A DNA stretch of 64,000 nt, taken from assembly GCF_023721715.1 (NCBI RefSeq), contig NZ_JAMDLG010000001.1, positions 3,857,655-3,921,654 on the forward strand, given 5' to 3'. Source of the DNA: Parasegetibacter sp. NRK P23 (GTDB lineage Bacteria; Bacteroidota; Bacteroidia; Chitinophagales; Chitinophagaceae). A program made the translations under genes and the position numbers. This document shows, piece after piece, positions 10,311-63,679 of this stretch. Under the pieces are notes generated by a model. The model searched no databases. It saw only the letters and a list, made by a program, of their open reading frames with translations, and was not told the origin of the DNA. Position 1 is the first letter of the stretch, and every line of letters starts with the position of its first letter.

Positions 10311-10328
10311 CTTCACGTTTCACAAATG

Positions 10329-10480
10329 CACGGGGTGCTTTCCCGCAGGGAAGGCTGAGATCATACCCGGTACCTGATCTGGATAATACCAGCGGAGGAA
10401 TTGCAAAAATGGTGTTGCACATCATTCGGGCGTAAGCTCCTGTTCCCATGGTTTTCCGGGCAGGAGCTTTTGATTTTTTA
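10329..10480 (+). ncRNA. TPP (THI-box) riboswitch with terminator-type expression platform
   Basis: GGGGUGC ... GCUGAGA ... ACCCGGUACCUGAUCUGGAUAAUACCAGCGGAGGAA matches the THI element. It is followed by a 9-bp stem (aagctcctg/caggagctt) plus a U-tract at 10434..10480. Confidence 0.85.
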
Positions 10481-32555: not shown

Positions 32556-32865
32556 GTTTTAAAGGTTGTTTTTTCAAAAACCACGATGCCCGCCACCGGC
32601 AAAGGCGGAATGGAATTCGTATACCAGCTGCTCCTGTTGTTCCCTTCGCTTATGTCGCTCCTGCTGAGGAACGACAGCCACGAAAAGAAGTGCGGGTCGA
32701 TCTGCCATCTTCCATCCATTGCTGGCTATTGCCTGGTTGCGGTTCCAAAGCCGCCCCACTCAAGGGAGCCGCTCTTTCAAGCGCCGGAATCTTCCGGCGG
32801 TCATAGGTTCCACAGGCGGGCAGCCTGGTTTTGTTTGCTTGTCATCATTTTTTGAGAAGCGATGG

Positions 32866-33000
32866 ACTTCTTTTTCAACATTTTGAGTGTTGTGTTCTAC
32901 CGCTGAACTATCACGTTTTGAGCGTGAGCAGGATTCGAACCCGCGCTGCATGAACTGTTGCTCTACCAACTGAGCTACCTGCGTTAGGAGGGAAGGAATC
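32866..33000 (-). other. cluster of degenerate, fragmented tRNA-like sequences (tRNA halves): a 5' half with CAA anticodon arm; a D-arm+T-arm chimera; a T-arm+3' acceptor fragment
   Basis: D-loop motifs AGCTCAGTTGGTAGAGC and AGTTCAGCGGTAGAAC. T-loops GGTTCGAATCC and GGTTCGATTCC. Perfect anticodon stem-loop CAACA-CUCAAAA-UGUUG. No full cloverleaf can be assembled. Confidence 0.5.
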
Positions 33001-33682: not shown

Positions 33683-33754
33683 CACGGGATGAAGGATTCG
33701 AACCTTCATGCACGGGTTTGGAATCCGTGTTGTTGCCAATTACATCAACCCCGC
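33683..33754 (-). tRNA. tRNA-Trp (CCA)
   Basis: Acceptor GCGGGGU/AUCCCGU (2 G-U). Anticodon loop UUCCAAA. T-arm GAAGG-TTCGAAT-CCTTC. Discriminator G. Confidence 0.7.
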
Positions 33755-33757
33755 GAA

Positions 33758-33832
33758 TGGTGGATGAAACAGGATTCGAACCTGTAACCACGGCGTTTCA
33801 AACCGCTGCTCTACCATTGGAGCTATTCATCC
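33758..33832 (-). tRNA. tRNA-Phe (GAA), second copy, CCA encoded
   Basis: Acceptor GGAUGAA/UUCAUCC. D-arm GCTCCAATGGTAGAGC. Anticodon stem GCGGU/GCCGU with loop UUGAAAC. T-arm ACAGG-TTCGAAT-CCTGT. Confidence 0.65.
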
Positions 33833-33836
33833 GTTG

Positions 33837-33908
33837 TTGGTCCGGCAGGATTTGAACCTGCAGCCTTGAACGTATCAGGTTCCTGCGCTACCATTGCGCC
33901 ACGGACCA
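33837..33908 (-). tRNA. tRNA-Ile (GAU)
   Basis: Acceptor UGGUCCG/CGGACCA. D-stem GCGC/GCGC. Anticodon loop CUGAUAC. T-arm GCAGG-TTCAAAT-CCTGC. Confidence 0.6.
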
Positions 33909-33987
33909 TTTGCCGGCTCAGAAAGATTGGAACTTTCACTGTTGTGTTCGTAGCACAGTGTTCTTTCCGGTTAAACTATAAGCCGGG

Positions 33988-34060
33988 GGTTGTCTCCGGG
34001 CCTCGAACCCTGTTCTCTTCTTTCACAGGGAGGCGCTTTACCCGTTAAGCTAAAGACAAC
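33988..34060 (-). tRNA. tRNA of uncertain identity. Anticodon loop CUGUGAA (GUG, His-like) with discriminator C73, but a weak anticodon stem.
   Basis: Perfect 7-bp acceptor GUUGUCU/AGACAAC. D-stem GCTT/AAGC. T-loop TTCGAGG. Anticodon stem CCUCC/AGAAG has two C-A mismatches. No encoded G-1. Confidence 0.4.
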
Positions 34061-34066
34061 AAACTG

Positions 34067-34138
34067 TTGTTGAGGCTGGATTCGAACCAGCATCTTCAGC
34101 GCCAAAAGCTGACGTGCTCGCCGTTGCACTACTCAACA
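34067..34138 (-). tRNA. tRNA-Gln (UUG)
   Basis: Acceptor UGUUGAG/CUCAACA (U1-A72 as in bacterial tRNA-Gln). Anticodon stem-loop UCAGC-UUUUGGC-GCUGA. T-arm GCTGG-TTCGAAT-CCAGC. Confidence 0.8.
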
Positions 34139-41783: not shown

Positions 41784-44700
41784 ATGAACGGGTTGAACAT
41801 TGTTATAAGAGGGCATAAGCAGACGCCCGCAGTTGCGACCAATGCAGGCGATGTATTGGAGCTGGAAGCGTCTTACACGATTACCGGGGTTTCCCGAGGC
41901 GATGCCTCTGCCCATAAGATCACACTGAACAGGGAGAAATTACTTGAATTTATTTTTGAAGATGAAACTACATGGATGTGCAGCGATGCATCCATCAACG
42001 AATTATTCCCCGAACTGGATGCGCCTGGCATGGCTTCGGCGGTACGTGGCGGCGATGGCGCATTCGAAATACCCGCGGCATTAAAGGCGTCGGGAGCGGA
42101 ACGTGGATGGGTGACCAACGTGGCCATAAAGCTCATCAATGTATTCGCGAAAAAGAAGATAGGCATCACCGTTGAAAAAGCCGCCAGGAATTATGAGTTG
42201 AAGAACCTGGGCAATGTGGTGGGACTTTTTAAAGTAGATACTGGCTTTCATTTGCACGAATTCCGTGCGCCGGAGCTGGGGAAACCGGTGCTTTTGCTGA
42301 TCCATGGAACAGCGTCTTCCGTATGGGGTTGCTTTGGCGGAATGAAAAATACAGAACTCTGGAAATACCTTTGCCAAACCTATGGTAACAATATTTACGC
42401 TTTCCAGCATGAAACACTGAGCAAAAGTCCGTTAGACAATATCCGCGAACTTATCGGGCTATTGCCTTCCAACCTCCACCTGCATATCATTACACATTCA
42501 CGTGGTGGATTGCTGGGAGATGTACTCTCCAGATTCACAGATTCTGATGCGGGGAAAAATGGCTTTACAGATGAGGAACTGGCTTTGCTGGAGAAAGAGA
42601 AAAGACATGCAGACCTCCGGAACATTGAGGCGATCACGAAGTTGATGGCGGGGAAACAGTTGCGTGTGGAGCGTTTCATCCGTGTTGCCTGTCCTGCCGC
42701 CGGAACGATACTGGCTTCCAAACGACTGGATATTTATTTCAATGTGATCGCCAACCTTACCGGTTTATTAACCGGTTCACTGGCCAACCCGCTGTTCACG
42801 GCTTTCCGCGAACTGATCGCCTCGGTGATCGATACCAAAGATGACAGCGATGTATTACCGGGCATAGAAGCCATGAACCCGGAATCGCCGTTTTTGAAAG
42901 TGCTGAACAATCCATCCACGTCAGCGCCATTGAACAATCAATTGGTGGTGGTGGCCGGTAACTGTGGACTGAACTTCAGTATGAAGGCGTTGAAGATACT
43001 TGCCGTTCGCCTTTTTTTCCTGGAAGCCAACGACCTTGTGGTGAACAGCGATTCCATGTACCTGGGGGCCAAAAGAAAAATGCCAGTGCAGTATTTTTTT
43101 GATGAGGCCGATGATGTGGACCACTTCAGCTATTTCAGGAATAAAAAGACGGGCCAGGCTATGATGCGCGCCTTCCAGACCCAGCCCGATAAGCCTGTTC
43201 CGGGGTACGCGCTCTTCAACAGCCCCAGCTCGGAAGAAGCCCTCCGCAACGCGTTATTTAACCCGGAAGGTGGTGAACTTTTCCCCGATGAAATCACGGG
43301 AAAAAGACCTATCGCTGTGCTGTTACCCGGCATCATGGGCTCCAATATTGGTCCTAAGGGCGACCTGCTCTGGATCAATTACTGGAAGTTCATTAAGGGT
43401 GGGTTAAAAGACCTGAACAACCTGGAGGAATACACCGCAACTTCCGTGGTGAAAACCTCGTATAAAAAACTGAAAGATGAACTCTCCGCGAAATACGATG
43501 TGGAGACTTTTCATTTCGACTGGCGTCGTCCATTGACCGAAGTGGCCGCTATCTTCAATGAAAGAATAAAACAACTGATGGCCTTCGGCCAGCCGATCAG
43601 GTTGATTGGCCACTCTATGGGCGGTGTGGTGATCCGTGATTTTATGGTGAACCACCGCGAAACCTGGCAGCAGCTCAATAATTCCACGGGCTTCCGGCTT
43701 ATCTTCCTCGGGTCCCCACTGGGCGGCTCTTTCAGAATTCCCTACGTGTTGTTCGGGAAAGATTCCATCATCAAGAAACTCGCGATGATCGATATGCGCC
43801 ACAGCAAAAAGGAGTTGTTGCGCGTGTTTTCAGGCATGCAGGGATTGTTAAGTTTACTTCCCCTCGATAAAAACAATGCGGAAAATGATTTTGGAAACGG
43901 TGAAACCTGGCGACAGATGGCCCAGGCTGTAGGCGATTCTTCCTGGCCGCTTCCGCCTGCCAATACAATTAAAGCATTTGCAGATTACCGTGATGGCATA
44001 ACGGATCTTTCAGCGGATGACTTTAAGAATGCCGTGTACATAGCAGGGAAAGATAAGTCCACACCTTGCGGTTATCGCATCGAAAATGGGCAGCTCGTGT
44101 TCCTAAGTACCGCCGAAGGCGACCAGAGCGTAACCTGGGAAACAGGCATTCCTGCTTTAATGTCAGCCGCCAATAATGTGTATTACGTAAACGTTTCGCA
44201 TGGCGCGCTGGCCAACGAACCTTCCATGTTCAAAGGCATTGGTGAAATACTTGAAACAGGTACCACCAACCTTTTGAGTAAGAAACGGCCGGTGGTACGC
44301 GGGGAAGAAAAAGTATTCCGTACACCGGAAGTACACGACTTCGATACTTCCATGATAGGGTTGGAAAAAACACTGCTGGGATTGGGTGGAGAAACCACCG
44401 GAATTGAGCGGGGTGAAACACCGATCCGGGTATGGGTAAGTAACGGGGACCTTTCTTACGCGGCAAATCCGGTACTCGCAGGTCACTTTGAAGATGATGG
44501 CGTACTGTATGCCGAATCTTATATAGATGCGCTGCTGGATGGCGCGTTGCGAAAAAGACACCAGCTTGGATTGTACCCGGGAAAAATCGGTACCAGTGAA
44601 GTGTTCCTGCCCGATGCGGGTCGGTTTACCGGAGCGATTATAACCGGTTTAGGTAAACCCGGTACATTAACGGCGCACCAGCTCACGCTTACCGTAGAGC

Positions 44701-47243
44701 AGGGGGTCACCAATTATTTACTGGGCTTTAACAGCGGGCTGGAACGCAGGCAAAAAAAGAACGACGGGTCGGGTATTTCCTCACTTATTATCGGGTGTGG
44801 ATATGGCGGACTAAGCGTGGAGAATTCCATCCGCGCCATTTTACAGGGCGTTCAGAATGCCAATGTGAAAATGGCGAAATTGTATGGAACCCATTGCCGG
44901 ATGGTGGAAGATGTAGAATTTGTGGAGAAGGACCACAGTCGCGCGCTCGGATGTTTCTATTCACTCGCAAGAATAGAGCAGGAGCGCAACCGCTGGCTCA
45001 ACATTACTTTACCCGAGAAAAAAATAAGGCTCCTGCTGGGAAGGACCAAAAGAATACCACACGACGCCAGCGAGGAATGGTGGAACCGCATCACCGTAAG
45101 GCAGTATGGTCTGGAGACGTTGGAAAGAAAAGCCATCAGCAGCCTGCATTTCAGCGCCTCCACCGGAGGGGCAAGAGAGGAAGTGCGGGTACTGCATTGC
45201 AGCATGGGAATTATTGATGAACTGGTGAACAATATTTCCACCAGCAATGAATGGACGCCACAACGAGCCAAGACCATCTTCGAATTGCTGATACCCAACG
45301 ATTTTAAAGAACAACTCAAAAGGCAATGCCATATCTCCTGGATACTGGACAAGGAAACGGCCGCTTATCCCTGGGAGTTGCTGCAGGACACGATCCAGAA
45401 TGCAAAACCCCTGTGCATCAGCGCGGGCATGATCCGTCAACTGGCCACGGAGCAATACCGGACCATTATCAATCCAGCGGTGAAGAACAATGTGCTGATT
45501 ATTGCCGAACCGCAGCTCAACGGCGCGGCCCCCGCCCTTCCGGCAGCAAAAGAAGAGGGGCTGCAAGTGGCGGATATATTGAAGGAGAACGGGTACGAAA
45601 CAAAACTCGTGGCAGAAGCAGCGGCCCCGGAAATAATCCAGGCTTTATACGAAGACGATTACCGTATTATTCACCTGGCGGGACACGGTTTTTTCAACGA
45701 ACAGGAACCGGAAAATTCCGGGATGATGATCGGTCATAATGTCTATCTCTCCACCCGTGAAATCGCCCAGATGAGTGTGGTTCCGGAACTGGTGGTGGTG
45801 AACTGCTGCTTCCTGGGCAAAACTTCCGGAGCCGCCGAAGCGCTGTACAACAAGAGATACCGGCTGGCCGCCAACATTGGCACACAACTGATTGAAAACG
45901 GAGTGAAAGCCGTAGTGGCCGCAGGGTGGGCTGTGAACGACGCGGCAGCGCAGGAGTTTACCAATGTGTTTTACAAACACCTTTTCGATGGGTATAACTT
46001 CGGGGAAGCTGTGCTGGAAGCTCGAAAGGCTGTTTTCACGCTGTTCCCGGGAACGAACACCTGGGGGGCCTATCAATGCTATGGTGATCCGTTCTTTAAA
46101 TTGAAAGCGAATGGTCCTTCCAGGAAAGAAGCGCGTCCGTTGTCGTATGTTATTTCGGAAGAAGCGGAATACGACCTGTTCAACCTGCTGAATGAACTGG
46201 AGATGGGGAACCGGCCCGTAGCTGAATACAACCGCAAACTGGTCGCCATCATGGATGCCGTTGACCGTGCGGGCATCCGGAATGCGGAGATCACCGAAAA
46301 AGAAGCATGGGTCCTCACTGAACTGGCGAGTTTTGATGAGGCCATCGTGAAGTACGAGCAGTTGCTCCGGATGGAAAAAGCGCTTTTCACTTTCCTCAGT
46401 ATGGAAAGGTATTGCGATATCAGGGGCAGAAAACTGTTGCGCGATCTTCAGCGTAAACTCATTACGGCCGCACAGGCGGAAGAAGGCATCCTCCGCGTGA
46501 TTGCCGACCTGGGTGTGCTGATCAACGCCGGCGGTACGGCAGAGCGGTTCGGGCTACTCGCGCGCGCCTACAAAAGAAAAGCGCTGATGACCAACCAGTC
46601 CGCCGCCCGGACAAAGCTGCTGGAAAAAGCGGCCGCGCTTTGTTACCAGGCATACCAGGTGGCGGGAAAAGGGGAGAATATGTACGCGCTAACGGCATGG
46701 CTGGAAATGGAAAGCGTGCTGGTATTGGTCTACGGAAGAAAATGGGGACAGTCCTGCCGCTCGGAAAACCTGACCTACACACTCCCGCAAGCCGAGGATG
46801 TTCTAAAATTACTCGAGCAGTCCGCCACTACTGTTTACAGCGACGACGATGAATTTGATTACAACGATATGGTTTCCGCCACACACATCGAACTCTGCAG
46901 AATGCTGGTGGGCAAAGCGTCCGGCGGGGAAGAGGACTGGAGCAATATTATGCGTACGCTGCAATCTATATGGGAAAAGGCCGGCTCCCCGGGTAAAAAG
47001 ATCGCGGAAACTGAAAGATGGTGCTTCCTGGCACATGCGCTTTCAGGCCAGAGAAAAGATATTGCTTACGAATTCATCCCCGAAGGAAACGCAGGTATGG
47101 AAACGATCAGCGTGTATGTTGAAATGGTCAGGGAAGTGTTGAAGCTCCGTAAAAAGAACGGCGGCATCTCCGTGAAAAAAGCACCGGTTAAGAAGGCTGC
47201 CCCCAAGAAAAGCCCGGCGAAAAAACGGGTTACGAAAAAGTAA
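41784..47243 (+). CDS. 1819-aa multidomain protein: unknown N-domain + two tandem lipase/esterase-like alpha/beta-hydrolase modules + caspase-like region + CHAT protease domain + TPR-like helical array + Lys/Ala/Pro-rich tail
   Basis: GxSxG elbows ITHSRGG (~aa 239) and IGHSMGG (~aa 611), each preceded by an oxyanion-type LLIHGT / LLPGIMGS segment. CHAT dyad HLAGHG (~aa 1298) and VVVNCCFLG (~aa 1342). C-terminal helical repeats. Tail KKAPVKKAAPKKSPAKKRVTKK. Single uninterrupted frame. Confidence 0.85.
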   Translation: MNGLNIVIRGHKQTPAVATNAGDVLELEASYTITGVSRGDASAHKITLNREKLLEFIFEDETTWMCSDASINELFPELDAPGMASAVRGGDGAFEIPAALKASGAERGWVTNVAIKLINVFAKKKIGITVEKAARNYELKNLGNVVGLFKVDTGFHLHEFRAPELGKPVLLLIHGTASSVWGCFGGMKNTELWKYLCQTYGNNIYAFQHETLSKSPLDNIRELIGLLPSNLHLHIITHSRGGLLGDVLSRFTDSDAGKNGFTDEELALLEKEKRHADLRNIEAITKLMAGKQLRVERFIRVACPAAGTILASKRLDIYFNVIANLTGLLTGSLANPLFTAFRELIASVIDTKDDSDVLPGIEAMNPESPFLKVLNNPSTSAPLNNQLVVVAGNCGLNFSMKALKILAVRLFFLEANDLVVNSDSMYLGAKRKMPVQYFFDEADDVDHFSYFRNKKTGQAMMRAFQTQPDKPVPGYALFNSPSSEEALRNALFNPEGGELFPDEITGKRPIAVLLPGIMGSNIGPKGDLLWINYWKFIKGGLKDLNNLEEYTATSVVKTSYKKLKDELSAKYDVETFHFDWRRPLTEVAAIFNERIKQLMAFGQPIRLIGHSMGGVVIRDFMVNHRETWQQLNNSTGFRLIFLGSPLGGSFRIPYVLFGKDSIIKKLAMIDMRHSKKELLRVFSGMQGLLSLLPLDKNNAENDFGNGETWRQMAQAVGDSSWPLPPANTIKAFADYRDGITDLSADDFKNAVYIAGKDKSTPCGYRIENGQLVFLSTAEGDQSVTWETGIPALMSAANNVYYVNVSHGALANEPSMFKGIGEILETGTTNLLSKKRPVVRGEEKVFRTPEVHDFDTSMIGLEKTLLGLGGETTGIERGETPIRVWVSNGDLSYAANPVLAGHFEDDGVLYAESYIDALLDGALRKRHQLGLYPGKIGTSEVFLPDAGRFTGAIITGLGKPGTLTAHQLTLTVEQGVTNYLLGFNSGLERRQKKNDGSGISSLIIGCGYGGLSVENSIRAILQGVQNANVKMAKLYGTHCRMVEDVEFVEKDHSRALGCFYSLARIEQERNRWLNITLPEKKIRLLLGRTKRIPHDASEEWWNRITVRQYGLETLERKAISSLHFSASTGGAREEVRVLHCSMGIIDELVNNISTSNEWTPQRAKTIFELLIPNDFKEQLKRQCHISWILDKETAAYPWELLQDTIQNAKPLCISAGMIRQLATEQYRTIINPAVKNNVLIIAEPQLNGAAPALPAAKEEGLQVADILKENGYETKLVAEAAAPEIIQALYEDDYRIIHLAGHGFFNEQEPENSGMMIGHNVYLSTREIAQMSVVPELVVVNCCFLGKTSGAAEALYNKRYRLAANIGTQLIENGVKAVVAAGWAVNDAAAQEFTNVFYKHLFDGYNFGEAVLEARKAVFTLFPGTNTWGAYQCYGDPFFKLKANGPSRKEARPLSYVISEEAEYDLFNLLNELEMGNRPVAEYNRKLVAIMDAVDRAGIRNAEITEKEAWVLTELASFDEAIVKYEQLLRMEKALFTFLSMERYCDIRGRKLLRDLQRKLITAAQAEEGILRVIADLGVLINAGGTAERFGLLARAYKRKALMTNQSAARTKLLEKAAALCYQAYQVAGKGENMYALTAWLEMESVLVLVYGRKWGQSCRSENLTYTLPQAEDVLKLLEQSATTVYSDDDEFDYNDMVSATHIELCRMLVGKASGGEEDWSNIMRTLQSIWEKAGSPGKKIAETERWCFLAHALSGQRKDIAYEFIPEGNAGMETISVYVEMVREVLKLRKKNGGISVKKAPVKKAAPKKSPAKKRVTKK

Positions 47244-47250
47244 AATGAAA

Positions 47251-47298
47251 CGGGCGTATCAAAGAACGATACGCCCGCGTTTATTTCATTCATATTTT
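47251..47298 (+). terminator. strong rho-independent terminator of the giant gene
   Basis: Perfect 10-bp stem cgggcgtatc/gatacgcccg with a 7-nt loop, followed by a T-rich tract. Confidence 0.8.
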
Positions 47299-47334: not shown

Positions 47335-47580
47335 TAAGCAAGAAATTATACCAAGCGCACACGTTGCGCCGCCGTGTTGCGAAGCATGAAGCAATTGCGA
47401 GAAATAAGAATACATCCGCGGCTTTCTAATAAAAGAAACGCCCGCCAACCCGCTAATGCCTTGCGTCCTTGCTCCTGCGAGGAACGAAGCAGTGCGCCTG
47501 CGCCGTGCACAGCACAAAGCAGTTGCGTGAAACCTTCCCCAACAAAACCATTGCTTTCCCCTGCATTGCGAGGAACAACA
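47335..47580. repeat. intergenic GC-rich repeat element (TTGCG-rich family, copy 1)
   Basis: Shares the CCTTGCGTCCTTGCTCCT(T)GCG, AGTGCGC and GCAATTGCGAGAA motifs with 62385..62600 and 50793..50880. Confidence 0.6.
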
Positions 47581-47582
47581 TG

Positions 47583-48104
47583 TTACAACGAATCCTTCTT
47601 CGCCCCCAGGTTCGCATATTTATTCACCGCATTACAATCCACCTCTTTCAAAGGAAACCCTGTGAACTGAAGCTGCGAACGGTCCGAAAAAACCATTCTC
47701 CCGTTTTTTTCCTCCACCGGCCCATAGCCTTCCACCATCGAATCTCCCTGTTTCAAAAAGCTGACTTCCCGGATAGAAACTTTTCCTTCCGACATAAAGG
47801 TATATTCCCCGAACAAAGTATCACCGGAAGCCTGCAATACCACCATACCCACATTTTTATCTTTCTCAAAAAGATTGTAAGTCAGGTTGCCTTTTATGGA
47901 GTCCGCGCTCACAATCATCGACATGCTGATGGTGTCCTTGCCATTTATGCCGGCATAACAAAGCGCCACATTGCTTTTCGGTACGAAAGCGGCGCCGTTC
48001 TTTCCACCTTCCACCCCATCGGGACTGCTTGGTTTAGGATCTGCATTGTTACACGAGAAAAGAAAGAGGGCTGCCGCGAAAGCCGGGATCTGAAAAAGTT
48101 TCAT
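47583..48104 (-). CDS. hypothetical lipoprotein
   Basis: Start trimmed to MKLFQIPAFAAALFLFSC (lipobox). Confidence 0.55.
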   Translation of the reverse strand: MKLFQIPAFAAALFLFSCNNADPKPSSPDGVEGGKNGAAFVPKSNVALCYAGINGKDTISMSMIVSADSIKGNLTYNLFEKDKNVGMVVLQASGDTLFGEYTFMSEGKVSIREVSFLKQGDSMVEGYGPVEEKNGRMVFSDRSQLQFTGFPLKEVDCNAVNKYANLGAKKDSL

Positions 48105-48444
48105 GGTAGTTTTTTTTAATGAACACACGCATGTGCCCATTCATAATGATAAAATTTAATAGGAATAAAGATAATCGAATTCGTGTGCAGAATGGATGTT
48201 AACGAGATGAAAGGAAAATTTTGAATCCAGAATACTAAAAGAAAATAACGGAAGGGCTTCCGGGCAAAATACTGATTCCGTTAACGGAAAACAACGTCGG
48301 TGGCACCGGTTCCGCGGATTTCACGCCCAAGGGCCTTTTCTTCCAAAAGATTAACACGGTGAACATCAGCAGAAAAACACGGTACCCGGTGGCACCGCTA
48401 TACCGGTGGCACCGGGGTACACAATTCCTTCGTAAATTGCACCC

Positions 48445-50790
48445 ATGTTTAATTACCTGGAAGGATTGAATGAGCAGCAACGAGAAGCTGTATTGCATAA
48501 AGACGGACCCATCATGATTGTTGCCGGTGCCGGCAGCGGAAAAACCAAAGTACTCACCACCCGTATTGCCCACCTCATGGCACAGGGGGTGGACGCGTTC
48601 AACATACTCGCCCTTACCTTTACCAATAAGGCCGCGGCAGAAATGAAGGAAAGGATCGGAAAGATCCTCGGCAATAGTGAAGCGCGTAATCTATATGTGG
48701 GTACGTTCCACAGTGTTTTTGCACGGATACTCCGCGGGGAAGCCCATAACATCGGGTATCCCAATAACTTCACGATATATGATACCGACGATTCGAGGAG
48801 TGTGCTGAAAACGGTGATCAATGAAATGAACCTCGACGATAAGCACTACAAACCCAATGTGGTGCACAGCAGGATTTCAGGCGCGAAGAACGCGCTCGTC
48901 GGGCCCGCGGAATATGCCACGGATTATTACATTCAGCAGGAAGATATGCGGCAGAACCGGCCTGAGATCGCCCGCATCTTTGACGCATACGTGAAAAGAT
49001 GCTTCAAAAACGGCGCGATGGACTTTGACGACCTGCTGCTGAAAATGTATGAACTCCTGAACACGCAGCCAGATGCGCTGCACAAATACCAGCATAAGTT
49101 CAAATACATACTCGTAGATGAGTATCAGGATACCAACCCTGCCCAGTACGCCATCATCAAACTGCTCGCGGCGATGCACGAAAACATCTGCGTGGTAGGT
49201 GATGATGCCCAAAGTATCTATTCTTTCCGGGGGGCCACCATCGAAAACATCCTTCAGTTCCAGAAAGATTATGACGATGTGAAAGTGGTAAAACTGGAAC
49301 AGAATTACCGCTGCACGCAGAATATCCTGAATGTTGCCAACGAGATCATCAGCAACAACAAAGGACAGATTCCGAAGAACCTCTGGACAGATAATGCCCA
49401 GGGCGAAAAGATCAGGCTCGTCCGTACGATGAGCGATAACGAGGAAGGGCATTTCGTAGCAGATACCATCCAGGAACAGAAGCTGCGCAATCATTTCAAC
49501 AACCGCGATTTCGCGATTCTCTATAGAACGAACGCGCAGAGCCGCGCATTCGAAGAAAGCCTGAGAAGAAAGGCCATTCCTTACAAAATATTTGGCGGCA
49601 TGTCTTTCTACCAGCGGAAGGAAATCCGCGACTTCGTGGCCTACCTTCGTATCATCGTGAACGGCCAGGATGAGGAAGGGCTCAAACGTATTATCAACTA
49701 CCCCGCCAGGGGAATAGGAAAAACTACCGTTGAAAAAGCGGTGATCGTTGCCAATGAGCAGAATATTTCCATGTGGCAGGTGCTGGAAAGAGCCGGGGAA
49801 TTTGGCTTCAAAGCGGGTACGTTGGAGTCGATCCAGCAATTCGTTCAGATGATAAAATATTTCCGTGCGTTGCTGAACGATAAGAATGCTTACGATGTGG
49901 CACAGCAGGTGGGTAAGCATACCAACATGGTGAAGGAACTTTTCTCCGATAAAACATCAGAGGGCCTGGCGCGTTACGAGAACGTGCAGGAATTGCTGAA
50001 CTCTATCAAAGAGTTTACCGAAACACCTGATACCGAAGATGGCGAACAGGTGGACAAATCACTTGGCGCTTACCTCCAGCAGATTACGCTGCTAACAGAT
50101 GCCGATAACGATGAAGATGAGAATGCCGATGTGGTAAAACTGATGACCATCCACGCGGCGAAGGGGCTTGAGTTTCCAGTTGTATTTTCTGTGGGGCTGG
50201 AAGAAACATTGTTTCCCAGCGCTATGTCCATCAATACCAGGGAAGAACTGGAAGAAGAGCGCCGCCTTTTTTATGTAGTGGTTACCCGCGCAAAAACGAG
50301 GCTTTGGATTTCTTATGCGAATAGTCGTTACCGCTTCGGGCAACTGGTGCAGAACGAGCCGAGTCGTTTTCTCGAAGAAATTCCGGATGAATACCTAGAC
50401 CGCAGCTACTCAGGTGGTGGTGCCCGGAACCAGGGCGCTTCTTTTACCGGAGGATCAGCTTTCGAAAGAATGAAAGGTGGTTTTGGTGCAGCCGCGCAGG
50501 CCGAAAAAATGTATGGTCCCCCGCCAGCCAAAAGAAAAGATACCAAACCGGCTTACATGCCGCCGCCCGCGCCCGCCAAAGTAGTGGAGCATGTGCCCTC
50601 TACCGATTTTGTTGCCAGTGATACCAGCAACTTACAGGCGGGCCAGCAGGTAGAACACCAGAAGTTCGGGTTCGGAACTGTGGCTAAATTGGAAGGCTCC
50701 GCACACAACCCTATCGCGACGATTAATTTTCAACACAACGGAGAGAAAAAGATTATGTTGAATTACGCGAAGTTGCGGATAGTGGAATAA
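48445..50790 (+). CDS. uvrD: UvrD/PcrA/Rep-family ATP-dependent DNA helicase with Gly/Pro-rich C-terminal extension
   Basis: Walker A (AGAGSGKT). Motifs DEYQDTN, VGDDAQSIYSFRGA, TIHAAKGLEF. Confidence 0.9.
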   Translation: MFNYLEGLNEQQREAVLHKDGPIMIVAGAGSGKTKVLTTRIAHLMAQGVDAFNILALTFTNKAAAEMKERIGKILGNSEARNLYVGTFHSVFARILRGEAHNIGYPNNFTIYDTDDSRSVLKTVINEMNLDDKHYKPNVVHSRISGAKNALVGPAEYATDYYIQQEDMRQNRPEIARIFDAYVKRCFKNGAMDFDDLLLKMYELLNTQPDALHKYQHKFKYILVDEYQDTNPAQYAIIKLLAAMHENICVVGDDAQSIYSFRGATIENILQFQKDYDDVKVVKLEQNYRCTQNILNVANEIISNNKGQIPKNLWTDNAQGEKIRLVRTMSDNEEGHFVADTIQEQKLRNHFNNRDFAILYRTNAQSRAFEESLRRKAIPYKIFGGMSFYQRKEIRDFVAYLRIIVNGQDEEGLKRIINYPARGIGKTTVEKAVIVANEQNISMWQVLERAGEFGFKAGTLESIQQFVQMIKYFRALLNDKNAYDVAQQVGKHTNMVKELFSDKTSEGLARYENVQELLNSIKEFTETPDTEDGEQVDKSLGAYLQQITLLTDADNDEDENADVVKLMTIHAAKGLEFPVVFSVGLEETLFPSAMSINTREELEEERRLFYVVVTRAKTRLWISYANSRYRFGQLVQNEPSRFLEEIPDEYLDRSYSGGGARNQGASFTGGSAFERMKGGFGAAAQAEKMYGPPPAKRKDTKPAYMPPPAPAKVVEHVPSTDFVASDTSNLQAGQQVEHQKFGFGTVAKLEGSAHNPIATINFQHNGEKKIMLNYAKLRIVE

Positions 50791-50792
50791 AA

Positions 50793-50880
50793 ACGTTGCG
50801 CCGTGGCGTCGTTGCGAGAAACTATATTGTCTTCCTGAAAGAAATCTCTCGCAACGACGCCACGGCGCAACGCATAAAAT
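50793..50880. repeat. long perfect palindrome (about 27-bp arms) of the TTGCG-rich repeat family
   Basis: gttgcgccgtggcgtcgttgcgagaaa ... tctctcgcaacgacgccacggcgcaac. Directly after the uvrD stop. Confidence 0.65.
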
Positions 50881-55525: not shown

Positions 55526-56305
55526 ATGGCAAAGAAAAAATCCACTAAAACACCGAAGGGCTACAAAATACTTATCGCGATCATGATCGTTTCCATCGTG
55601 GCGATGTTCGGTGTAGCCGGCTATGAATGGTGGAAAGTGCGCCGCGCGAAGTTCATCCGCTACCCCGAATTCGGCATTGATATGCCCGTGAGCTATGAAA
55701 TTCACGGTATTGATGTCTCTAAATACCAGCAAACCATCAACTGGGAAGCCGTGAAAGAAATGGAAGTAGAGGGAATCAAACTCGGCTTTGCATTCATCAA
55801 GGCTACTGAAGGACTGGGCAATGTGGACCGTCAGTTCCGCCGCAACTGGAAACGTGCCGGCGATGCAGCTATGCCACGTGGCGCCTATCACTTCTTCCTC
55901 GCTACCAAAAGCGGCAGGATACAGGCTGAAAACTTTATCAGAACCGTAGCACTTGAACCAGGCGATTTACCCCCGGTACTGGATGTGGAACAAACTTACG
56001 GCGTGGCCACCGCGAAAATAAAAGCGGAAGTGAAAACCTGGCTCGATATCGTGGAAGTGCATTATGGGGTGAAACCCATCCTGTACACAAATGTTTCGTT
56101 CTACGAAAAATACCTCGGGGAAGATTTTGATGAATACCCGCTTTGGGTAGCGCATTACCTTCAGAAAGAACGTCCCCGCATCGGCCGTACCTGGCACTTC
56201 TGGCAACACAGCGAAACCGGTCGCGTGAACGGCATCCGCTCCTTAGTAGACTTCAACGTTTTTAAAGGAGACAGTACGGATTTCAGGGAGTTGCTGGTGA
56301 AATAA
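55526..56305 (+). CDS. GH25-family lysozyme (muramidase), membrane-anchored
   Basis: N-terminal TM segment. GH25 motifs (HGIDVSKYQQTINWEAV, FIKATEG, YHFF). Confidence 0.75.
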   Translation: MAKKKSTKTPKGYKILIAIMIVSIVAMFGVAGYEWWKVRRAKFIRYPEFGIDMPVSYEIHGIDVSKYQQTINWEAVKEMEVEGIKLGFAFIKATEGLGNVDRQFRRNWKRAGDAAMPRGAYHFFLATKSGRIQAENFIRTVALEPGDLPPVLDVEQTYGVATAKIKAEVKTWLDIVEVHYGVKPILYTNVSFYEKYLGEDFDEYPLWVAHYLQKERPRIGRTWHFWQHSETGRVNGIRSLVDFNVFKGDSTDFRELLVK

Positions 56306-56376
56306 TTTTGAAAGTTGAATTTTGAATTAAAGTATTCCCCCTAATCCAAAATCCAACATTCAAAATTTATAATTTC

Positions 56377-56949
56377 CTACGCTACCCAAAGTTTTTCACC
56401 CTTTTTATAAGGCACGCACGCGTCAAACCTTCCCGGGGTCTCAACATAGCGCATCGCTTGTTTAGAACCGATTTCGGAAGTGAAATAACCCAGCAAGGTG
56501 AGTTCTTTCATGAGCCTGAAATAGTGTTTGGGTTCTTCTTTTTTCTTTGTGTTTTGGAATTCTTTTTGTTCGGCATCAAGTGCGGTGAGCAGCTCTTTGC
56601 GTTGTTCCGGTGTGCAGTCCATAAAGCCTTTGCTGAACTTCGCTTTGCAGGCGTCTTCCAGTTTTTTGAAACCGGCTTTAAAGGCTTCCTGTTCCTCTTT
56701 GGTGTAGCAGTCGCGCACCATCACATTCATGAATGCGCCTACTTTGGCGGCTTTTGCCCCTGGGGTAGACGTTGTTGGGATGATGGTTTCAGCCACTTCA
56801 TCGAGCCAGGCGATCTGCTTGTCGGTGAATAGCATTCCTTCGCCGGGCTTTTCTTCGGCGGTGTTGCAACCTGTAAGGAAAACATTGGCGCCAACAATGG
56901 TACCACCCATCAGGAGTGCAACGGCGGAGAGGGCATCTCTTCTGTTCAT
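56377..56949 (-). CDS. gluconate-2-dehydrogenase subunit-3-family protein (Tat signal)
   Basis: Twin-arginine MNRRDALSAVAL. Conserved partnership with a GMC oxidoreductase. Confidence 0.7.
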   Translation of the reverse strand: MNRRDALSAVALLMGGTIVGANVFLTGCNTAEEKPGEGMLFTDKQIAWLDEVAETIIPTTSTPGAKAAKVGAFMNVMVRDCYTKEEQEAFKAGFKKLEDACKAKFSKGFMDCTPEQRKELLTALDAEQKEFQNTKKKEEPKHYFRLMKELTLLGYFTSEIGSKQAMRYVETPGRFDACVPYKKGEKLWVA

Positions 56950-61226: not shown

Positions 61227-62384
61227 ATGAAAAGAAAACTCAGAATGGGCATGGTGGGGGGCGGTATCGGCGCGTTCATCGGCGCCGTGCACCGCATTGC
61301 GGCGGCTATGGATGGAGAAATTGAACTGGTTTGCGGCGCTTTCAGCAGCGATCCCGCGAAATCAAAAGAGAGCGGCATCATGCTCGGTCTTCCACCTGAG
61401 CGGGTATATCCTTCCTGGTGGGACATGATCGAGCAGGAGAAGCAACTGCCCGAAAATGTAAGGATGGATTTCATCAGCATCGTTACGCCCAACCACGTGC
61501 ATTTCGCACCCGCGAAAGCGGCTTTGGAAAACGGTTTCCACGTGGTGCTGGATAAACCGATGACCTTCACGCTCGCAGAAGCAAAGGAATTGAAACAAGT
61601 GGTGGAGCAAAGCGGAAAACTGTTTTGTCTTACGCATACCTATACAGGTTACCCCATGCTGAAAGAGGCGCGCCAGGTGGTGAAAGAAGGAAGGCTGGGT
61701 AAAATCAGGAAAGTATATGTGGAATACCCGCAGGGCTGGCTCAGCACCCTCGCCGAAAAAACCGATAACAAGCAGGCAAGCTGGAGAACCGATCCTTCCC
61801 GCAGTGGTATCGCGGGCGCCATGGGCGATATCGGCACACACGCCTTCAATATGGCGGAATATGTTACCGGAGCAAAAGTGACCGAACTCTGCGCCGACCT
61901 CAACATAGTAGTGGAAGGAAGACAACTCGACGACGACGGGATGGTGATGTTGCGTTTCGACAATGGCGCTTCCGGTATGTTGTTCGCCACACAAGTAGCT
62001 GCCGGCGAAGAGAACAATGTGAAGATCCGCGTTTACGGAGAAAAAGGCGGACTCGAATGGCGCCAGGAAGACGCGAATAGCCTCATCCTGAAATGGCCCG
62101 ATCAGCCCGCGCAGATCCTCCGCACCGGAGCCGGTTATCTAAGTAGTTACGCCGCGCACAATACGAGAACGCCTCCGGGGCATCCGGAGGGTTACCTCGA
62201 AGCGTTCGCCAACCTCTACCGCAATTTCGCGCAGAGCGTGGTGGCGATGGAAAAAGGAGCAACGCCTTCCAAAGAGTCACTCGATTTTCCGGGAGCAGAA
62301 GACGGGGTTAGAGGAATGGCATTCGTGGAGAATGTGGTGCGGAGCGGGAAATCTGCTGAAAAGTGGGTGGCTTTTGAGGTATAA
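61227..62384 (+). CDS. Gfo/Idh/MocA-family NAD(P)-dependent oxidoreductase
   Basis: Rossmann MGMVGGGIGAFIG. Typical family length. Confidence 0.85.
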   Translation: MKRKLRMGMVGGGIGAFIGAVHRIAAAMDGEIELVCGAFSSDPAKSKESGIMLGLPPERVYPSWWDMIEQEKQLPENVRMDFISIVTPNHVHFAPAKAALENGFHVVLDKPMTFTLAEAKELKQVVEQSGKLFCLTHTYTGYPMLKEARQVVKEGRLGKIRKVYVEYPQGWLSTLAEKTDNKQASWRTDPSRSGIAGAMGDIGTHAFNMAEYVTGAKVTELCADLNIVVEGRQLDDDGMVMLRFDNGASGMLFATQVAAGEENNVKIRVYGEKGGLEWRQEDANSLILKWPDQPAQILRTGAGYLSSYAAHNTRTPPGHPEGYLEAFANLYRNFAQSVVAMEKGATPSKESLDFPGAEDGVRGMAFVENVVRSGKSAEKWVAFEV

Positions 62385-62600
62385 GTGGTCACGCAATTGC
62401 TTTGTTCTCGCAATTGCTTTGTGCTGCGCACTGCGCAACGCAAAGGAGCAAGGACGCAAGGGGTTGCTGAGCTTGGGAAAGCTTGCGTTTTTGCGATGCG
62501 TTTTTGTAATTACAAATCCCTTTTTCTGTTACCTTATATCAAGAGCTTTATCAACATAAACGAACTTTGCGTCCTTGCTCCTTTGCGTCTTGGCGTGAAA
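62385..62600. repeat. MITE/REP-like intergenic repeat (TTGCG-rich family, copy with internal 22-bp inverted repeats)
   Basis: gcaaaggagcaaggacgcaagg at ~62437 and its reverse complement ccttgcgtccttgctcctttgcg at ~62560. Tandem gcaattgc(tttgt) units. Confidence 0.6.
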
Positions 62601-62623
62601 AAATAAACTAAAATCATCTTCTT

Positions 62624-63679
62624 ATGACAACAATAAAAGGCCCTGCCATCTTCCTCGCCCAATTCCTCGGTGATGAACCGCCTTTCAACAACCTCACCAC
62701 CATCTGCAAATGGGCCGCTGATCTGGGTTTCAAAGGTGTACAGATACCCACCTGGGATTCCCGTTGCATCGATCTGAAAAAAGCGGCGGAAAGCAAAACC
62801 TACGCCGATGAACTGAAAGGCTCTATTGCCGCCGCCGGACTGGAGATAACGGAATTGTCCACGCACCTGCAAGGGCAGCTCGTGGCCTGTCATCCCGCTT
62901 ACAATGAACTCTTCGACGGGTTCGCGCCCACGGAACTGAAAGGCGACCTGAAGGCCAAAACCGAATGGGCAACCCAACAACTGAAATACGCCGCGAAAGC
63001 CAGTGCTAACCTGGGCCTCAACGCGCACGCCACCTTCAGCGGATCACTGCTGTGGCATACGGTATATCCCTGGCCGCAACGTCCCGCCGGATTGGTGGAA
63101 ACTGGGTTCACCGAACTTGCCAACAGGTGGAAGCCCATCCTGGATGTATTCGATGAGAACGGCGTGGATGTTTGTTATGAAATTCATCCGGGAGAAGATC
63201 TCCACGATGGTATTTCCTACGAAATGTTCCTGGAGAAAGTGAACAACCATGCCCGCGCATGTTTATTGTACGATCCCAGCCATTTTGTACTGCAGTGTCT
63301 CGATTATATCAGCTATATCGATCATTACCACGAACGCATCAAAGCCTTCCATGTGAAGGATGCCGAGTTTAATCCCACGGGAAAACAAGGAGTCTACGGT
63401 GGGTTCCAGGGCTGGATCAACAGGGCGGGAAGGTTCCGTTCGCCAGGTGATGGACAGGTGGACTTCCAGGCCATCTTCAGCAAACTGGCCCAATACGATT
63501 TCAAAGGATGGGCCGTAATGGAATGGGAATGCTGCCTTAAACACCCGGAAGACGGCGCCCGCGAAGGCGCGCAGTTCATCGCGGACCACATCATCCGCGT
63601 TACGGAAAAAGCATTCGACGATTTCGCCGGACAAGGCGCGGATGAAAATTTTAACCGCAGGATTCTGGGATTGAACTGA
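62624..63679 (+). CDS. sugar-phosphate isomerase/epimerase (xylose-isomerase-like TIM barrel)
   Basis: TIM-barrel AP-endonuclease-2 fold motifs (YEIHPGEDLHD, HVKDAEF). Confidence 0.8.
   Translation: MTTIKGPAIFLAQFLGDEPPFNNLTTICKWAADLGFKGVQIPTWDSRCIDLKKAAESKTYADELKGSIAAAGLEITELSTHLQGQLVACHPAYNELFDGFAPTELKGDLKAKTEWATQQLKYAAKASANLGLNAHATFSGSLLWHTVYPWPQRPAGLVETGFTELANRWKPILDVFDENGVDVCYEIHPGEDLHDGISYEMFLEKVNNHARACLLYDPSHFVLQCLDYISYIDHYHERIKAFHVKDAEFNPTGKQGVYGGFQGWINRAGRFRSPGDGQVDFQAIFSKLAQYDFKGWAVMEWECCLKHPEDGAREGAQFIADHIIRVTEKAFDDFAGQGADENFNRRILGLN

Follow-up and report, generated by a model that had tools for sequence, protein, structure and literature searches.

The 64,000-nt window of Parasegetibacter sp. 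NRK P23 analysed here (contig NZ_JAMDLG010000001.1, positions 3,857,655 to 3,921,654 of the forward strand) contains two co-directional genes separated by an intergenic repeat. The upstream gene encodes a Gfo/Idh/MocA oxidoreductase of 385 aa (61227-62384, plus strand; the orthologue carries PF01408, PF02894, and PF22725) and ends with the TAA stop codon at 62382-62384. The downstream gene, also on the plus strand (62624-63679), encodes a sugar phosphate isomerase/epimerase of 351 aa with an AP_endonuc_2, xylose isomerase-like TIM barrel. This protein is 100% identical to that of strain NRK P23, and the helicase encoded at 48445-50790 agrees with this source. The complete spacer between them is 239 bp (62385-62623) and is made up of a mosaic repeat followed by a conserved 20-nt leader. 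An earlier sequence-only reading had placed a repeat between these two genes, in agreement with the open reading frames (ORFs), but limited it to 62385-62600, while the element takes up the entire spacer. [quoted passage not shown] It is probably better described as a mosaic of small non-coding dispersed palindromic repeats resembling REP (repetitive extragenic palindromic) sequences, BIMEs (bacterial interspersed mosaic elements), and REPINs (REP doublets forming hairpins), which would form a stable stem-loop in the operon transcript.

Anatomy and folding of the spacer element

The repeat family to which the element belongs is built from a polar unit of about 27-40 nt. A head with the sequence TT(C/T)(A/T)CGCAA, a consensus that may also be written TTCWCGCAA, is followed by three to four tandem 8-nt NCGCAAAG units, and the core of an arm consists of such CGCAAAG-type units. 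Single units are polar and do not form palindromes by themselves. In the element of the Gfo-TIM spacer two arms are paired tail to tail, with the heads pointing outward, and the left arm has been extended both by a nested module and by a 17-nt tandem duplication.

The left arm (62389-62461, plus strand) is of a type here called A-long and contains, in order, the head TCACGCAA, the nested module TTGCTTTGTGCTGCGCACTGCGCA, and the octamer tail ACGCAAAGGAGCAAGGACGCAAGG. The same order of modules is found on the minus strand of the window at 47459-47535, and L099-L102 (the prefix L denotes contigs and loci from other genomes and metagenomes) have it 3' of the helicase gene. In L072 and L074 the arm is short and lacks the inserted module. 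A duplication, TGGTCACGCAATTGCTT / TGTTCTCGCAATTGCTT (62386-62419, plus strand), doubles the head of the left arm; its copies at 62386-62402 and 62403-62419 are 88% identical. The tandem units noticed earlier are explained by this feature; GCAATTGCTTTGT occurs exactly twice, at 62393 and 62410, both times within the duplication. Alignment with other long arms shows that the extra 17 nt are present in the window copy only.

The right arm (62565-62603) is a canonical unit read on the minus strand, TTTTTTCACGCCAAGACGCAAAGGAGCAAGGACGCAAAG, and can be parsed as TTTTTTCACGCC-AAGACGCA-AAGGAGCA-AGGACGCAAAG. It matches the unit TTTTTTGTTTCACGCAAAGCTCGCAAAGGAGCAAGGACGCAAAG of other Chitinophagaceae genomes. 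The two arms share a perfect 22-nt inverted repeat, with ACGCAAAGGAGCAAGGACGCAA at 62438-62459 on the plus strand and its complement at 62567-62588, inside the right arm. Between the perfect arms lies an A+T-rich loop of 107 nt (62460-62566), which contains a 12-nt palindrome, TTGTAATTACAA (62504-62515). The right arm is followed by the leader of the TIM-barrel gene, AAACTAAAATCATCTTCTT, which was delimited by strain alignment and precedes the ATG (62604-62623, plus strand).

An exact 22-bp inverted repeat with its halves about 100 bp apart had been reported from the sequence-only reading, and a perfect 22-nt pair does exist, 107 nt apart. The 22-mer given for it, GCAAAGGAGCAAGGACGCAAGG, is however shifted by 2 nt, and its partner at 62565-62586 has one mismatch and is thus not an exact reverse complement. 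Nor does the same 22-mer occur at 47335-47580, as had been claimed; the copy at 47459-47480 differs at three positions, and only the 18-mer AGGAGCAAGGACGCAAGG is common to both places. The inverted repeat is not a product of chance. When the window was shuffled 100 times, no match to the reported 22-mer was found at three or fewer mismatches, and inverted repeats of at least 22 nt with at least 88% complementarity within 200 nt occur just three times in the 64 kb, all of them in intergenic DNA.

The RNA of the spacer has a calculated folding energy of -82.8 kcal/mol (z = -5.4 against shuffled sequences). Isolated units fold no better as DNA than shuffled sequences do (z = -1.6 to +1.6), while pairs reach z = -10 to -12. 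That part of the earlier reading which makes the element a non-coding, hairpin-forming intergenic repeat is supported. Searches against Rfam gave no match at E <= 10 in 62300-62700, none at the gathering score in the window spacer, and none in 20 loci with related hairpins, and scans of 62385-62623 for sigma-70 promoters and intrinsic terminators found nothing resembling either. A-rich sequence (GTGAAAAAATAAAC) follows the right arm, and the sense strand has no U-tract there. An intrinsic (Rho-independent) terminator was considered and rejected on the empty scan of 62385-62623, the 107-nt loop, and the A-rich 3' sequence. Four spurious ORFs of 60-75 aa run across the repeat between 62216 and 62606 on both strands (e.g., 62385-62606 and 62332-62559, both on the plus strand). 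None of them can be a gene, since sister strains have entirely different sequence in its place. For annotation, 62385-62623 is to be treated as repeat DNA that codes for no protein, and not as a member of any known family of regulatory RNAs.

Hairpin alleles in relatives and copies elsewhere

The close relatives available for comparison are contigs from metagenomes and metagenome-assembled genomes (MAGs), in which the TIM-barrel protein is 99% identical to that of the window and the flanking genes are 93-96% identical at the nucleotide level. Three unrelated hairpin alleles of 131-239 bp are found in the Gfo-TIM spacer of this population, always between the stop codon and AAACTAAAATCATCTTCTT-ATG. 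Allele A is present in the window (239 bp), L072 (202 bp), and L074 (216 bp), with arms of 32-35 nt, TCACGC(C)AAGACGCAAAGGAGCAAGGACGCAA, and a loop of about 108 nt. Allele B (137 bp in L071, 145 bp in L077 and L078) has arms consisting of TTTCTTTGCGCCTCTGCGCCTTTGCGAGAA and its complement around a loop of 24-28 nt; the 30-nt arms of L077 are 100% complementary, and a comparison of L071 with L077 shows that the pairing decays without compensation. Allele C (131 bp in L086, L088, and L091) is formed by CGTTGCGTCGTGGCGTCGTTGCGAGAAA and its complement, which is the arm type found at 50.8 kb in the window, and has a loop of about 28 nt. Within allele A, an insertion of 41-44 nt lengthens the left arm of the window, the right arm of L074 is followed by 15 additional nt, and the loop of L072 is largely different. 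The 107-nt loop of the window is homologous only to that of L074, and partly to that of L072, at the same locus, and is unrelated to loops elsewhere.

The surroundings of the hairpin are far better conserved. The flanks are retained up to the stop codon and from AAACTAAAATC on, and the leader AAACTAAAATCATCTTCTT is near-identical across the aligned strain loci whatever allele precedes it, with two substitutions in L072, L075, L074, and L076. The adjoining intergenic regions are also conserved, to 95% in the divergent promoter region that precedes the Gfo gene and to 85% in a convergent spacer downstream. The type of allele does not track the similarity of the flanks; the window (allele A) is nearest to L077 (allele B), and L072 (allele A) is nearest to L086 (allele C). 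A second locus, the spacer 3' of the helicase gene, has four allele types in the same population. A type C hairpin is found in the window and in L094, L095, and L097, a tail-to-tail hairpin with the private arms TCTCGCAAAGACGCGGAGGCGC (22/22 complementary) in L093 and L098, a type A arm in L096, and a long type A pair in L099-L102. The hairpin thus turns over far faster than its surroundings, and there is no clean empty site among the close strains. When the element was read as a MITE, a search for empty sites in relatives had been proposed; the site is polymorphic as that reading would have it, but the close strains contain other hairpin alleles in place of empty sites.

In Flavihumibacter the same gene pair is separated by an 18-nt spacer that contains no hairpin, and the hairpin is therefore dispensable for the operon. 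The orthologous spacer of Sediminibacterium is 90 bp and contains a hairpin of another unit type (TACTNAC). This hairpin, which is built from GTAG-rich heptamers (GGGAGTAGTGAGT ... ACTCACTACTGACTACTCCC; 2911-3000 of contigs L082 and L083), represents a third unit family at the same position.

Within the window the modules recur at 47.3-47.6 kb and 50.8 kb, and they are also found in many other genomes; the multi-copy nature that the earlier reading had proposed is confirmed, and the repeat is not absent elsewhere. At 47335-47580, on the minus strand between convergent genes, there is an array of four arms in the same orientation, including one A-long arm, the heads of which read TTGCGAGAA, CTGCGAGGAA, TTGCGTGAA, and TTGCGAGGAA on the plus strand. 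This array had been regarded as a copy of the spacer element. Two modules are indeed common to both, but the arms at 47 kb are in direct and not in inverted order. The array lies downstream of a canonical terminator (47251-47277), in which an 1819-aa ORF (41784-47243) with CHAT, DUF7379, and TPR-S domains in its orthologues also ends. The member at 50794-50872 is of type C. It is a perfect 26-nt head-to-head hairpin, CGTTGCGCCGTGGCGTCGTTGCGAGA and its complement, with a 27-nt loop, and it fills the spacer between the convergent helicase (48445-50790) and CMD genes. Its DNA folds with -39.4 kcal/mol (z = -12.4), and its arm type is also present in the Gfo-TIM spacer of L086. Against an expectation of 0.07, the window contains the head-plus-first-unit motif three times, in each case within intergenic DNA. 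The density of the family is three loci in 64 kb, and the copies either begin 1-4 nt past stop codons or are situated between convergent genes.

Some other repeats were noted as well. A hairpin at 56304-56367, with 26-nt arms that are 88% complementary and composed of 8-nt tandem units of another type (NTTTTGAA), fills the 71-nt spacer between the convergent ORFs 55526-56305 (plus strand) and 56377-56949 (minus strand). In the strain loci L071, L072, L077, and L086, the following convergent spacer (about 6246-6460) has a canonical terminator with arms of this same TTTTGAAT type on either side. The divergent spacer between a lipoprotein-like ORF and the helicase gene (48141-48444) contains the palindrome CGGTGGCACCG three times and displays an indel of about 120 nt between strains, the segment being absent in L093. 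The contigs L098, L099, and L101, and by inference L102, begin inside CGGTGCCACCGCTATAGCGGTGGCACCG, while L100 begins 14 nt upstream of it. Contig breaks in hairpins were not used as evidence for copy number, as palindromes alone can break assemblies. Further afield in the window there are seven clustered tRNA genes of the minus strand and one weaker tRNA match (33683-34138 and 32853-32913), and a thiamine pyrophosphate riboswitch at 10321-10418 on the plus strand.

The distribution beyond the species was examined by scanning one genome per species for the 18-mer AGGAGCAAGGACGCAARG. This gave 70 loci, a number that is not above the estimate for uniform composition (about 140) and is uninformative in itself. 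The signal for the family lies in a shared 20-nt upstream context and in taxonomic clustering. In 23 of the 70 loci this context stands before the 18-mer and makes up with it the unit TTTTTTGTTTCACGCAAAGCTCGCAAAGGAGCAAGGACGCAAAG; these loci belong to Chitinophagaceae MAGs, Ferruginibacter, Terrimonas, and Niabella. About ten further loci were counted by eye, eight of them from other phyla, together with Salinivirgaceae (L001), where the head stands directly before the 18-mer, and Parapedobacter (L011), which has the downstream grammar only. Units with the heads TTAACGCAAAG or TCAACGCAAAG are present in contigs titled Acidobacteria (one of 609 kb), Chloroflexota, Opitutales, Deltaproteobacteria MAG, and Dolichospermum, where the phylum labels are the titles of MAG records and may contain binning errors.

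In the Chitinophagaceae and related genomes most units stand alone or within longer composite tandem repeats, and they are found in the spacers of housekeeping genes (recA, nuoF/nuoG, iPGM, ccmF, and others). Rough ORF calls at 15 Chitinophagaceae loci place none in divergent, six in convergent, and nine in co-directional spacers. In three Ferruginibacter species (L008, L012, and L033) a solo unit has been kept at the same operon position, ending 25-29 nt before the nuoG start; in L033 it begins 2 nt past the preceding gene, and in L029 units follow nuoF in the opposite orientation. The composite tandem repeats of Terrimonas ferruginea (L064, 1100-1500) and of the Chitinophagaceae MAGs L019, L026, and L070 have a period of about 130-190 nt, and also hold runs of CACGAAG/CACAAAG octamers and of GTGAATC heptamers, as well as hairpins resembling terminators (AAATGCTTGCAGCATTTTTTT).

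Head-to-head pairs were sought in JGI metagenomes using the core TTGCGAGAA-N18-48-TTCTCGCAAMGRCGC. More than 120 stretches were found, and 80 soil loci were analysed. These contain 83 head-to-head hairpins, in which 40 of 1912 arm positions are mismatched, and 63 of the 80 loci match on the opposite strand too, showing that the left arm, which the pattern leaves unconstrained, is complementary. The arms consist of one to four copies of CTTTGCGC, and the arms of a pair resemble one another more closely than they do those of other pairs (0.72 versus 0.55 over the outer 10 nt). The soil contigs have a median G+C content of 57%, with neighbouring genes that include Ser/Thr kinases with TPR and TolB-propeller domains, and the hosts do not look like Bacteroidota. 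Statistics on the gene context of the soil hairpins were discarded as unreliable, since the simple ORF caller gives spurious calls at 57-68% G+C and put 22 of the 83 hairpins inside ORFs. The soil loops group into homologous subfamilies. One of these, represented by seven aligned copies, is a discrete and sharply delimited element of about 135 nt with unrelated flanks, and no target-site duplication was found in the seven copies. Some of the flanks continue the palindrome, which suggests insertion into older hairpins. This element has the structure TTTGCGAGCTTAAGTATTT-CTTTGCGCCTTTGCGAGAA-42-nt loop-complement (L105, L113, L116, L134, L150, L160, and L178) and is present at no fewer than seven different loci, of which a single sample series accounts for six. 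Two patterns searched against viral contigs gave no matches, and neither did blastn against a plasmid collection.

Mobility and alternative explanations

Membership in a MITE family is not supported, and the organization of the repeat is closer to that of the REP/BIME/REPIN mosaics, with polar units that are either solo or paired. The units are found alone, in direct arrays, in tail-to-tail pairs (62.4-62.6 kb), and in head-to-head pairs (50.8 kb), and the elements are situated directly 3' of stop codons in co-directional or convergent spacers. Complementarity within a pair is near-perfect even though the arms differ between copies, and private variants are found in both arms of a pair; examples are GCGGAGGCGC in L093 and the C/T variant that separates the 50.8-kb hairpin of the window from L086. 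Units would be copied from locus to locus, either through some activity acting in trans or through ectopic recombination at shared heads and octamers, and leave no target duplication behind. Pairs would be born, or be kept near-perfect, by copying from arm to arm (fold-back or template switching, or conversion), and subsequently decay.

The Gfo and TIM genes are most likely co-transcribed, given that the alleles contain no common promoter-like sequence and that the Flavihumibacter spacer is only 18 nt. The transcript through the element would contain a near-perfect duplex of 22-34 bp without a U-tract. Such a duplex would not be expected to terminate transcription, but it could act as a stem-loop protecting the 3' end, as a processing site of the RNase III type that uncouples the levels of the two cistrons, or as both. 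Correia and REP elements affect neighbouring genes in these ways, through RNase III-type processing or a 3'-protective stem. For the present element the effects at the RNA level (read-through, RNase III cleavage, and stabilization) are inferred from its anatomy. The element itself appears dispensable, and its persistence would be mainly selfish or neutral.

Several observations weigh against placing the element with the REP-like mosaics. No mobilizing enzyme was found among the neighbours, and the sole uncharacterized flanking ORF (47583-48140) is lipoprotein-like. The replacement of alleles could also come from recombination with diverged strains. The unit has neither the internal palindrome that defines a REP nor a GTAG/CGTC tag. 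Since hairpins of the same type have unrelated loops at different Parasegetibacter loci, simple copy-and-paste of whole hairpins does not account for the pattern, and a step of arm copying has to be assumed. Conservation of a unit of at least 35 nt across genera, and of its grammar across phyla, is moreover not usual in repeats of a purely selfish kind, and a conserved factor acting in trans, or a conserved function, may lie behind it.

A true MITE would require that the heads-outward pair (TCACGC...GCGTGA) represents the terminal inverted repeats of an element that is derived by deletion from an insertion sequence (IS) and mobilized in trans by a DDE transposase. The size of about 180-240 bp, the A+T-rich core, and the polymorphism of the spacer between strains all fit such an origin, as do the sharp ends of the discrete soil subfamily of about 135 nt. 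The position of the inverted repeat is ambiguous in this respect. In L072 and L074 the 32-35-nt repeat is almost at the ends of the variable segment, while the perfect arm of the window has about 53 nt of other modules to its left and is thus not terminal, as it had been taken to be. No target-site duplication is found at the window copy, at alleles B and C, or in the soil subfamily, and near both ends of some copies there is only the ubiquitous TAA. Arms and modules alone recur between loci; hairpins of the same type at different Parasegetibacter loci have unrelated loops (z < 2), and full-length copies were not found. A two-arm pattern (16 nt + N92-122 + 16 nt) gave no matches in the JGI metagenomes, a collection in which the Parasegetibacter species is not represented.

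Identical arms are, furthermore, found head-to-head, solo, and in direct arrays, the close strains have no clean empty site, and the viral and plasmid collections contain no matches. As for a mobilizing enzyme, no transposase with matching ends adjoins any of about 150 copies or the window copies, and no RAYT (a Y1/HUH transposase) was found in the 64 kb or in the other loci analysed. Pfam searches of ten unit neighbours gave housekeeping genes only (e.g., RecA, NuoF, iPGM, CcmF, and lipoamide dehydrogenase), and when 821 ORFs from 150 repeat-bearing loci were compared all-against-all by BLAST, the only neighbours to recur were Ser/Thr kinases and orthologous synteny blocks. The 185-aa product of the ORF at 47583-48140, which is flanked by repeats, has a signal peptide and a lipobox but no transposase domain. 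The MITE label given by the earlier reading is therefore not retained, and an origin of this kind is considered improbable.

Alternatively, the hairpin could be an RNA element under primary selection, such as an intercistronic attenuator, a terminator, or an mRNA-stabilizing stem-loop. The host would then need a hairpin at gene 3' ends, and the sequence family would be a by-product of the recruitment and conversion of hairpins. It speaks for this possibility that every close strain has some long hairpin both here and at the 3' end of the helicase gene, beginning 1-25 nt past the stop, that divergent spacers are avoided, and that the folds are very stable. The 50.8-kb hairpin is followed by TTTTTATT on the minus strand and could terminate the convergent CMD gene, and the convergent spacer at 56304-56367 contains a second family of octamer-built hairpins. 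An explanation by selection for the RNA is nevertheless unlikely. The sense strand has no U-tract, the terminator scan of the spacer is empty, Flavihumibacter manages with 18 nt between the same genes, and the decay of pairing in L071 is uncompensated. At 47 kb the arms are unpaired and follow a canonical terminator that is already complete. Identical arms in unrelated loci and genera, finally, need copying and not convergence.

That the units form an array to which a DNA-binding protein or RNA polymerase binds, serving as promoter or operator of the downstream gene, is far less credible. The pyrimidine strand presents CTTTGCG every 8 nt, which recalls the TTTG in the -33 and -7 elements of Bacteroidota promoters. 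The unit is conserved across genera and stands 25-29 nt upstream of the nuoG start in the three Ferruginibacter species, in the orientation CTTTGCG...GTGAAAC, and 36-41 nt upstream of a start codon in L024 and L036. The orientation relative to genes is however mixed, with about 15 copies in the opposite sense and downstream of genes, and the TA of the TAnnTTTG element is absent. The same grammar is also seen in contigs labelled as phyla with ordinary sigma-70 promoters, while alleles B and C have no promoter-like sequence in common and the sigma-70 scan was negative. A CRISPR array was rejected on the two inverted arms found here and on the fact that elsewhere the interval between units is itself repeated (a 191-nt tandem in Terrimonas L064). 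Readings as attC sites or DNA-uptake sequences were considered and set aside.

Relation to known repeats and significance

REP sequences have been described as singletons, as head-to-head and tail-to-tail dimers, and as clusters, and carry a GTAG or CGTC tag (PMC3733652). The REP/BIME/REPIN systems of enterobacteria and Pseudomonas share many properties with the Parasegetibacter repeat. In both cases short extragenic units occur as singletons, inverted dimers, and mosaic clusters downstream of genes, in co-directional or convergent spacers and without target-site duplication. The dimers form long hairpins in which the spacer is less conserved than the arms, nested palindromes are found, and several sequence types coexist in one genome. 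The differences concern the unit itself. A REP unit is an imperfect palindrome of 20-40 nt, whereas the Parasegetibacter unit is not a stem-loop and is built of 8-nt tandem repeats; its TTCWCGCAA heads have no GTAG/CGTC tag at the unit ends, and neither a RAYT nor a TIRYT was found nearby. REPs are also usually species-specific, while the present unit is conserved across genera and its grammar across phylum labels. The CGTC-type REPs known from Bacteroidetes, with stems of 8-9 bp and tags, do not fit the unit either (PMC3733652).

Similarities exist to other repeat families too. The bacterial MITEs that are found in mRNA (Correia/NEMIS of Neisseria, ERIC/IRU of enterobacteria, RUP, and Nezha) are of similar size (100-250 bp), have long inverted repeats and an A+T-rich core, are intergenic and often co-transcribed, and differ between strains in whether a site is occupied. 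Correia and ERIC elements form stable RNA duplexes that are processed by RNase III or RNase E, and a comparable effect on flanking genes through a stable duplex would be expected here. The Parasegetibacter element differs in having neither a TA nor any other target duplication and no full-length consensus; no cognate IS was found, and the arms also occur solo, in direct order, and head-to-head. The short tandemly repeated repetitive (STRR) sequences of heterocystous cyanobacteria are heptamers that, like the present repeats, form intergenic tandem arrays of 7-8-nt units with strand asymmetry and with several unit families per genome (here CGCAAAG-type and TTTTGAAT-type, and TACTNAC-type in Sediminibacterium). 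The Parasegetibacter arrays are however short: a conserved head caps three to four units, and inverted pairs forming hairpins are the usual arrangement. Repeat-derived terminators, such as those made from the uptake sequences (DUS/USS) of Neisseria and Haemophilus and the TRIT of Mycobacterium, likewise consist of a genome-wide sequence in inverted pairs 3' of genes that are often convergent. Compared to these, the Parasegetibacter repeat is far sparser (three loci in 64 kb), is confined to intergenic DNA, lacks a sense-strand U-tract at the Gfo-TIM copy, and has no link to competence.

The repeat first noticed in the spacer is real but was mislabelled in detail, and it overturns nothing that is known. 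What is noteworthy is the turnover of hairpin alleles at fixed sites, and that the grammar of the unit is conserved over an unusually broad range. Dispersed palindromic repeats of small size have been studied thoroughly in Proteobacteria, but descriptions from Bacteroidota are scarce, and a search of the accessible literature found no paper that links Chitinophagaceae to palindromic or REP repeats or that contains the unit sequence. The grammar of the unit is clearly defined and searchable. The hairpins also have practical consequences, as they break short-read assemblies (several metagenome contigs end inside them), and the spurious ORFs of 60-75 aa can mislead gene callers.

A bolder interpretation, which is regarded as doubtful, is that the octamer hairpins are the footprint of an undescribed mobilization or templating system that operates across phyla. 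Units would be installed at gene 3' ends, made into near-perfect palindromes by arm copying, and whole hairpins would then be swapped like cassettes at intergenic positions that stay fixed. If this were true, a conserved trans-acting protein that recognizes the head and the octamers would explain why a unit of at least 35 nt is near-identical across Chitinophagaceae genera. It would also explain the grammar in contigs labelled Acidobacteriota, Chloroflexota, Verrucomicrobiota, Deltaproteobacteria, and cyanobacteria. A repeat grammar common to several phyla, if it holds up in closed genomes, would call for a common enzyme or host factor. The two natural allelic series, with three or four unrelated hairpins per site, provide material for studies of both the effect of the hairpins on operon expression and the mechanism of their turnover.

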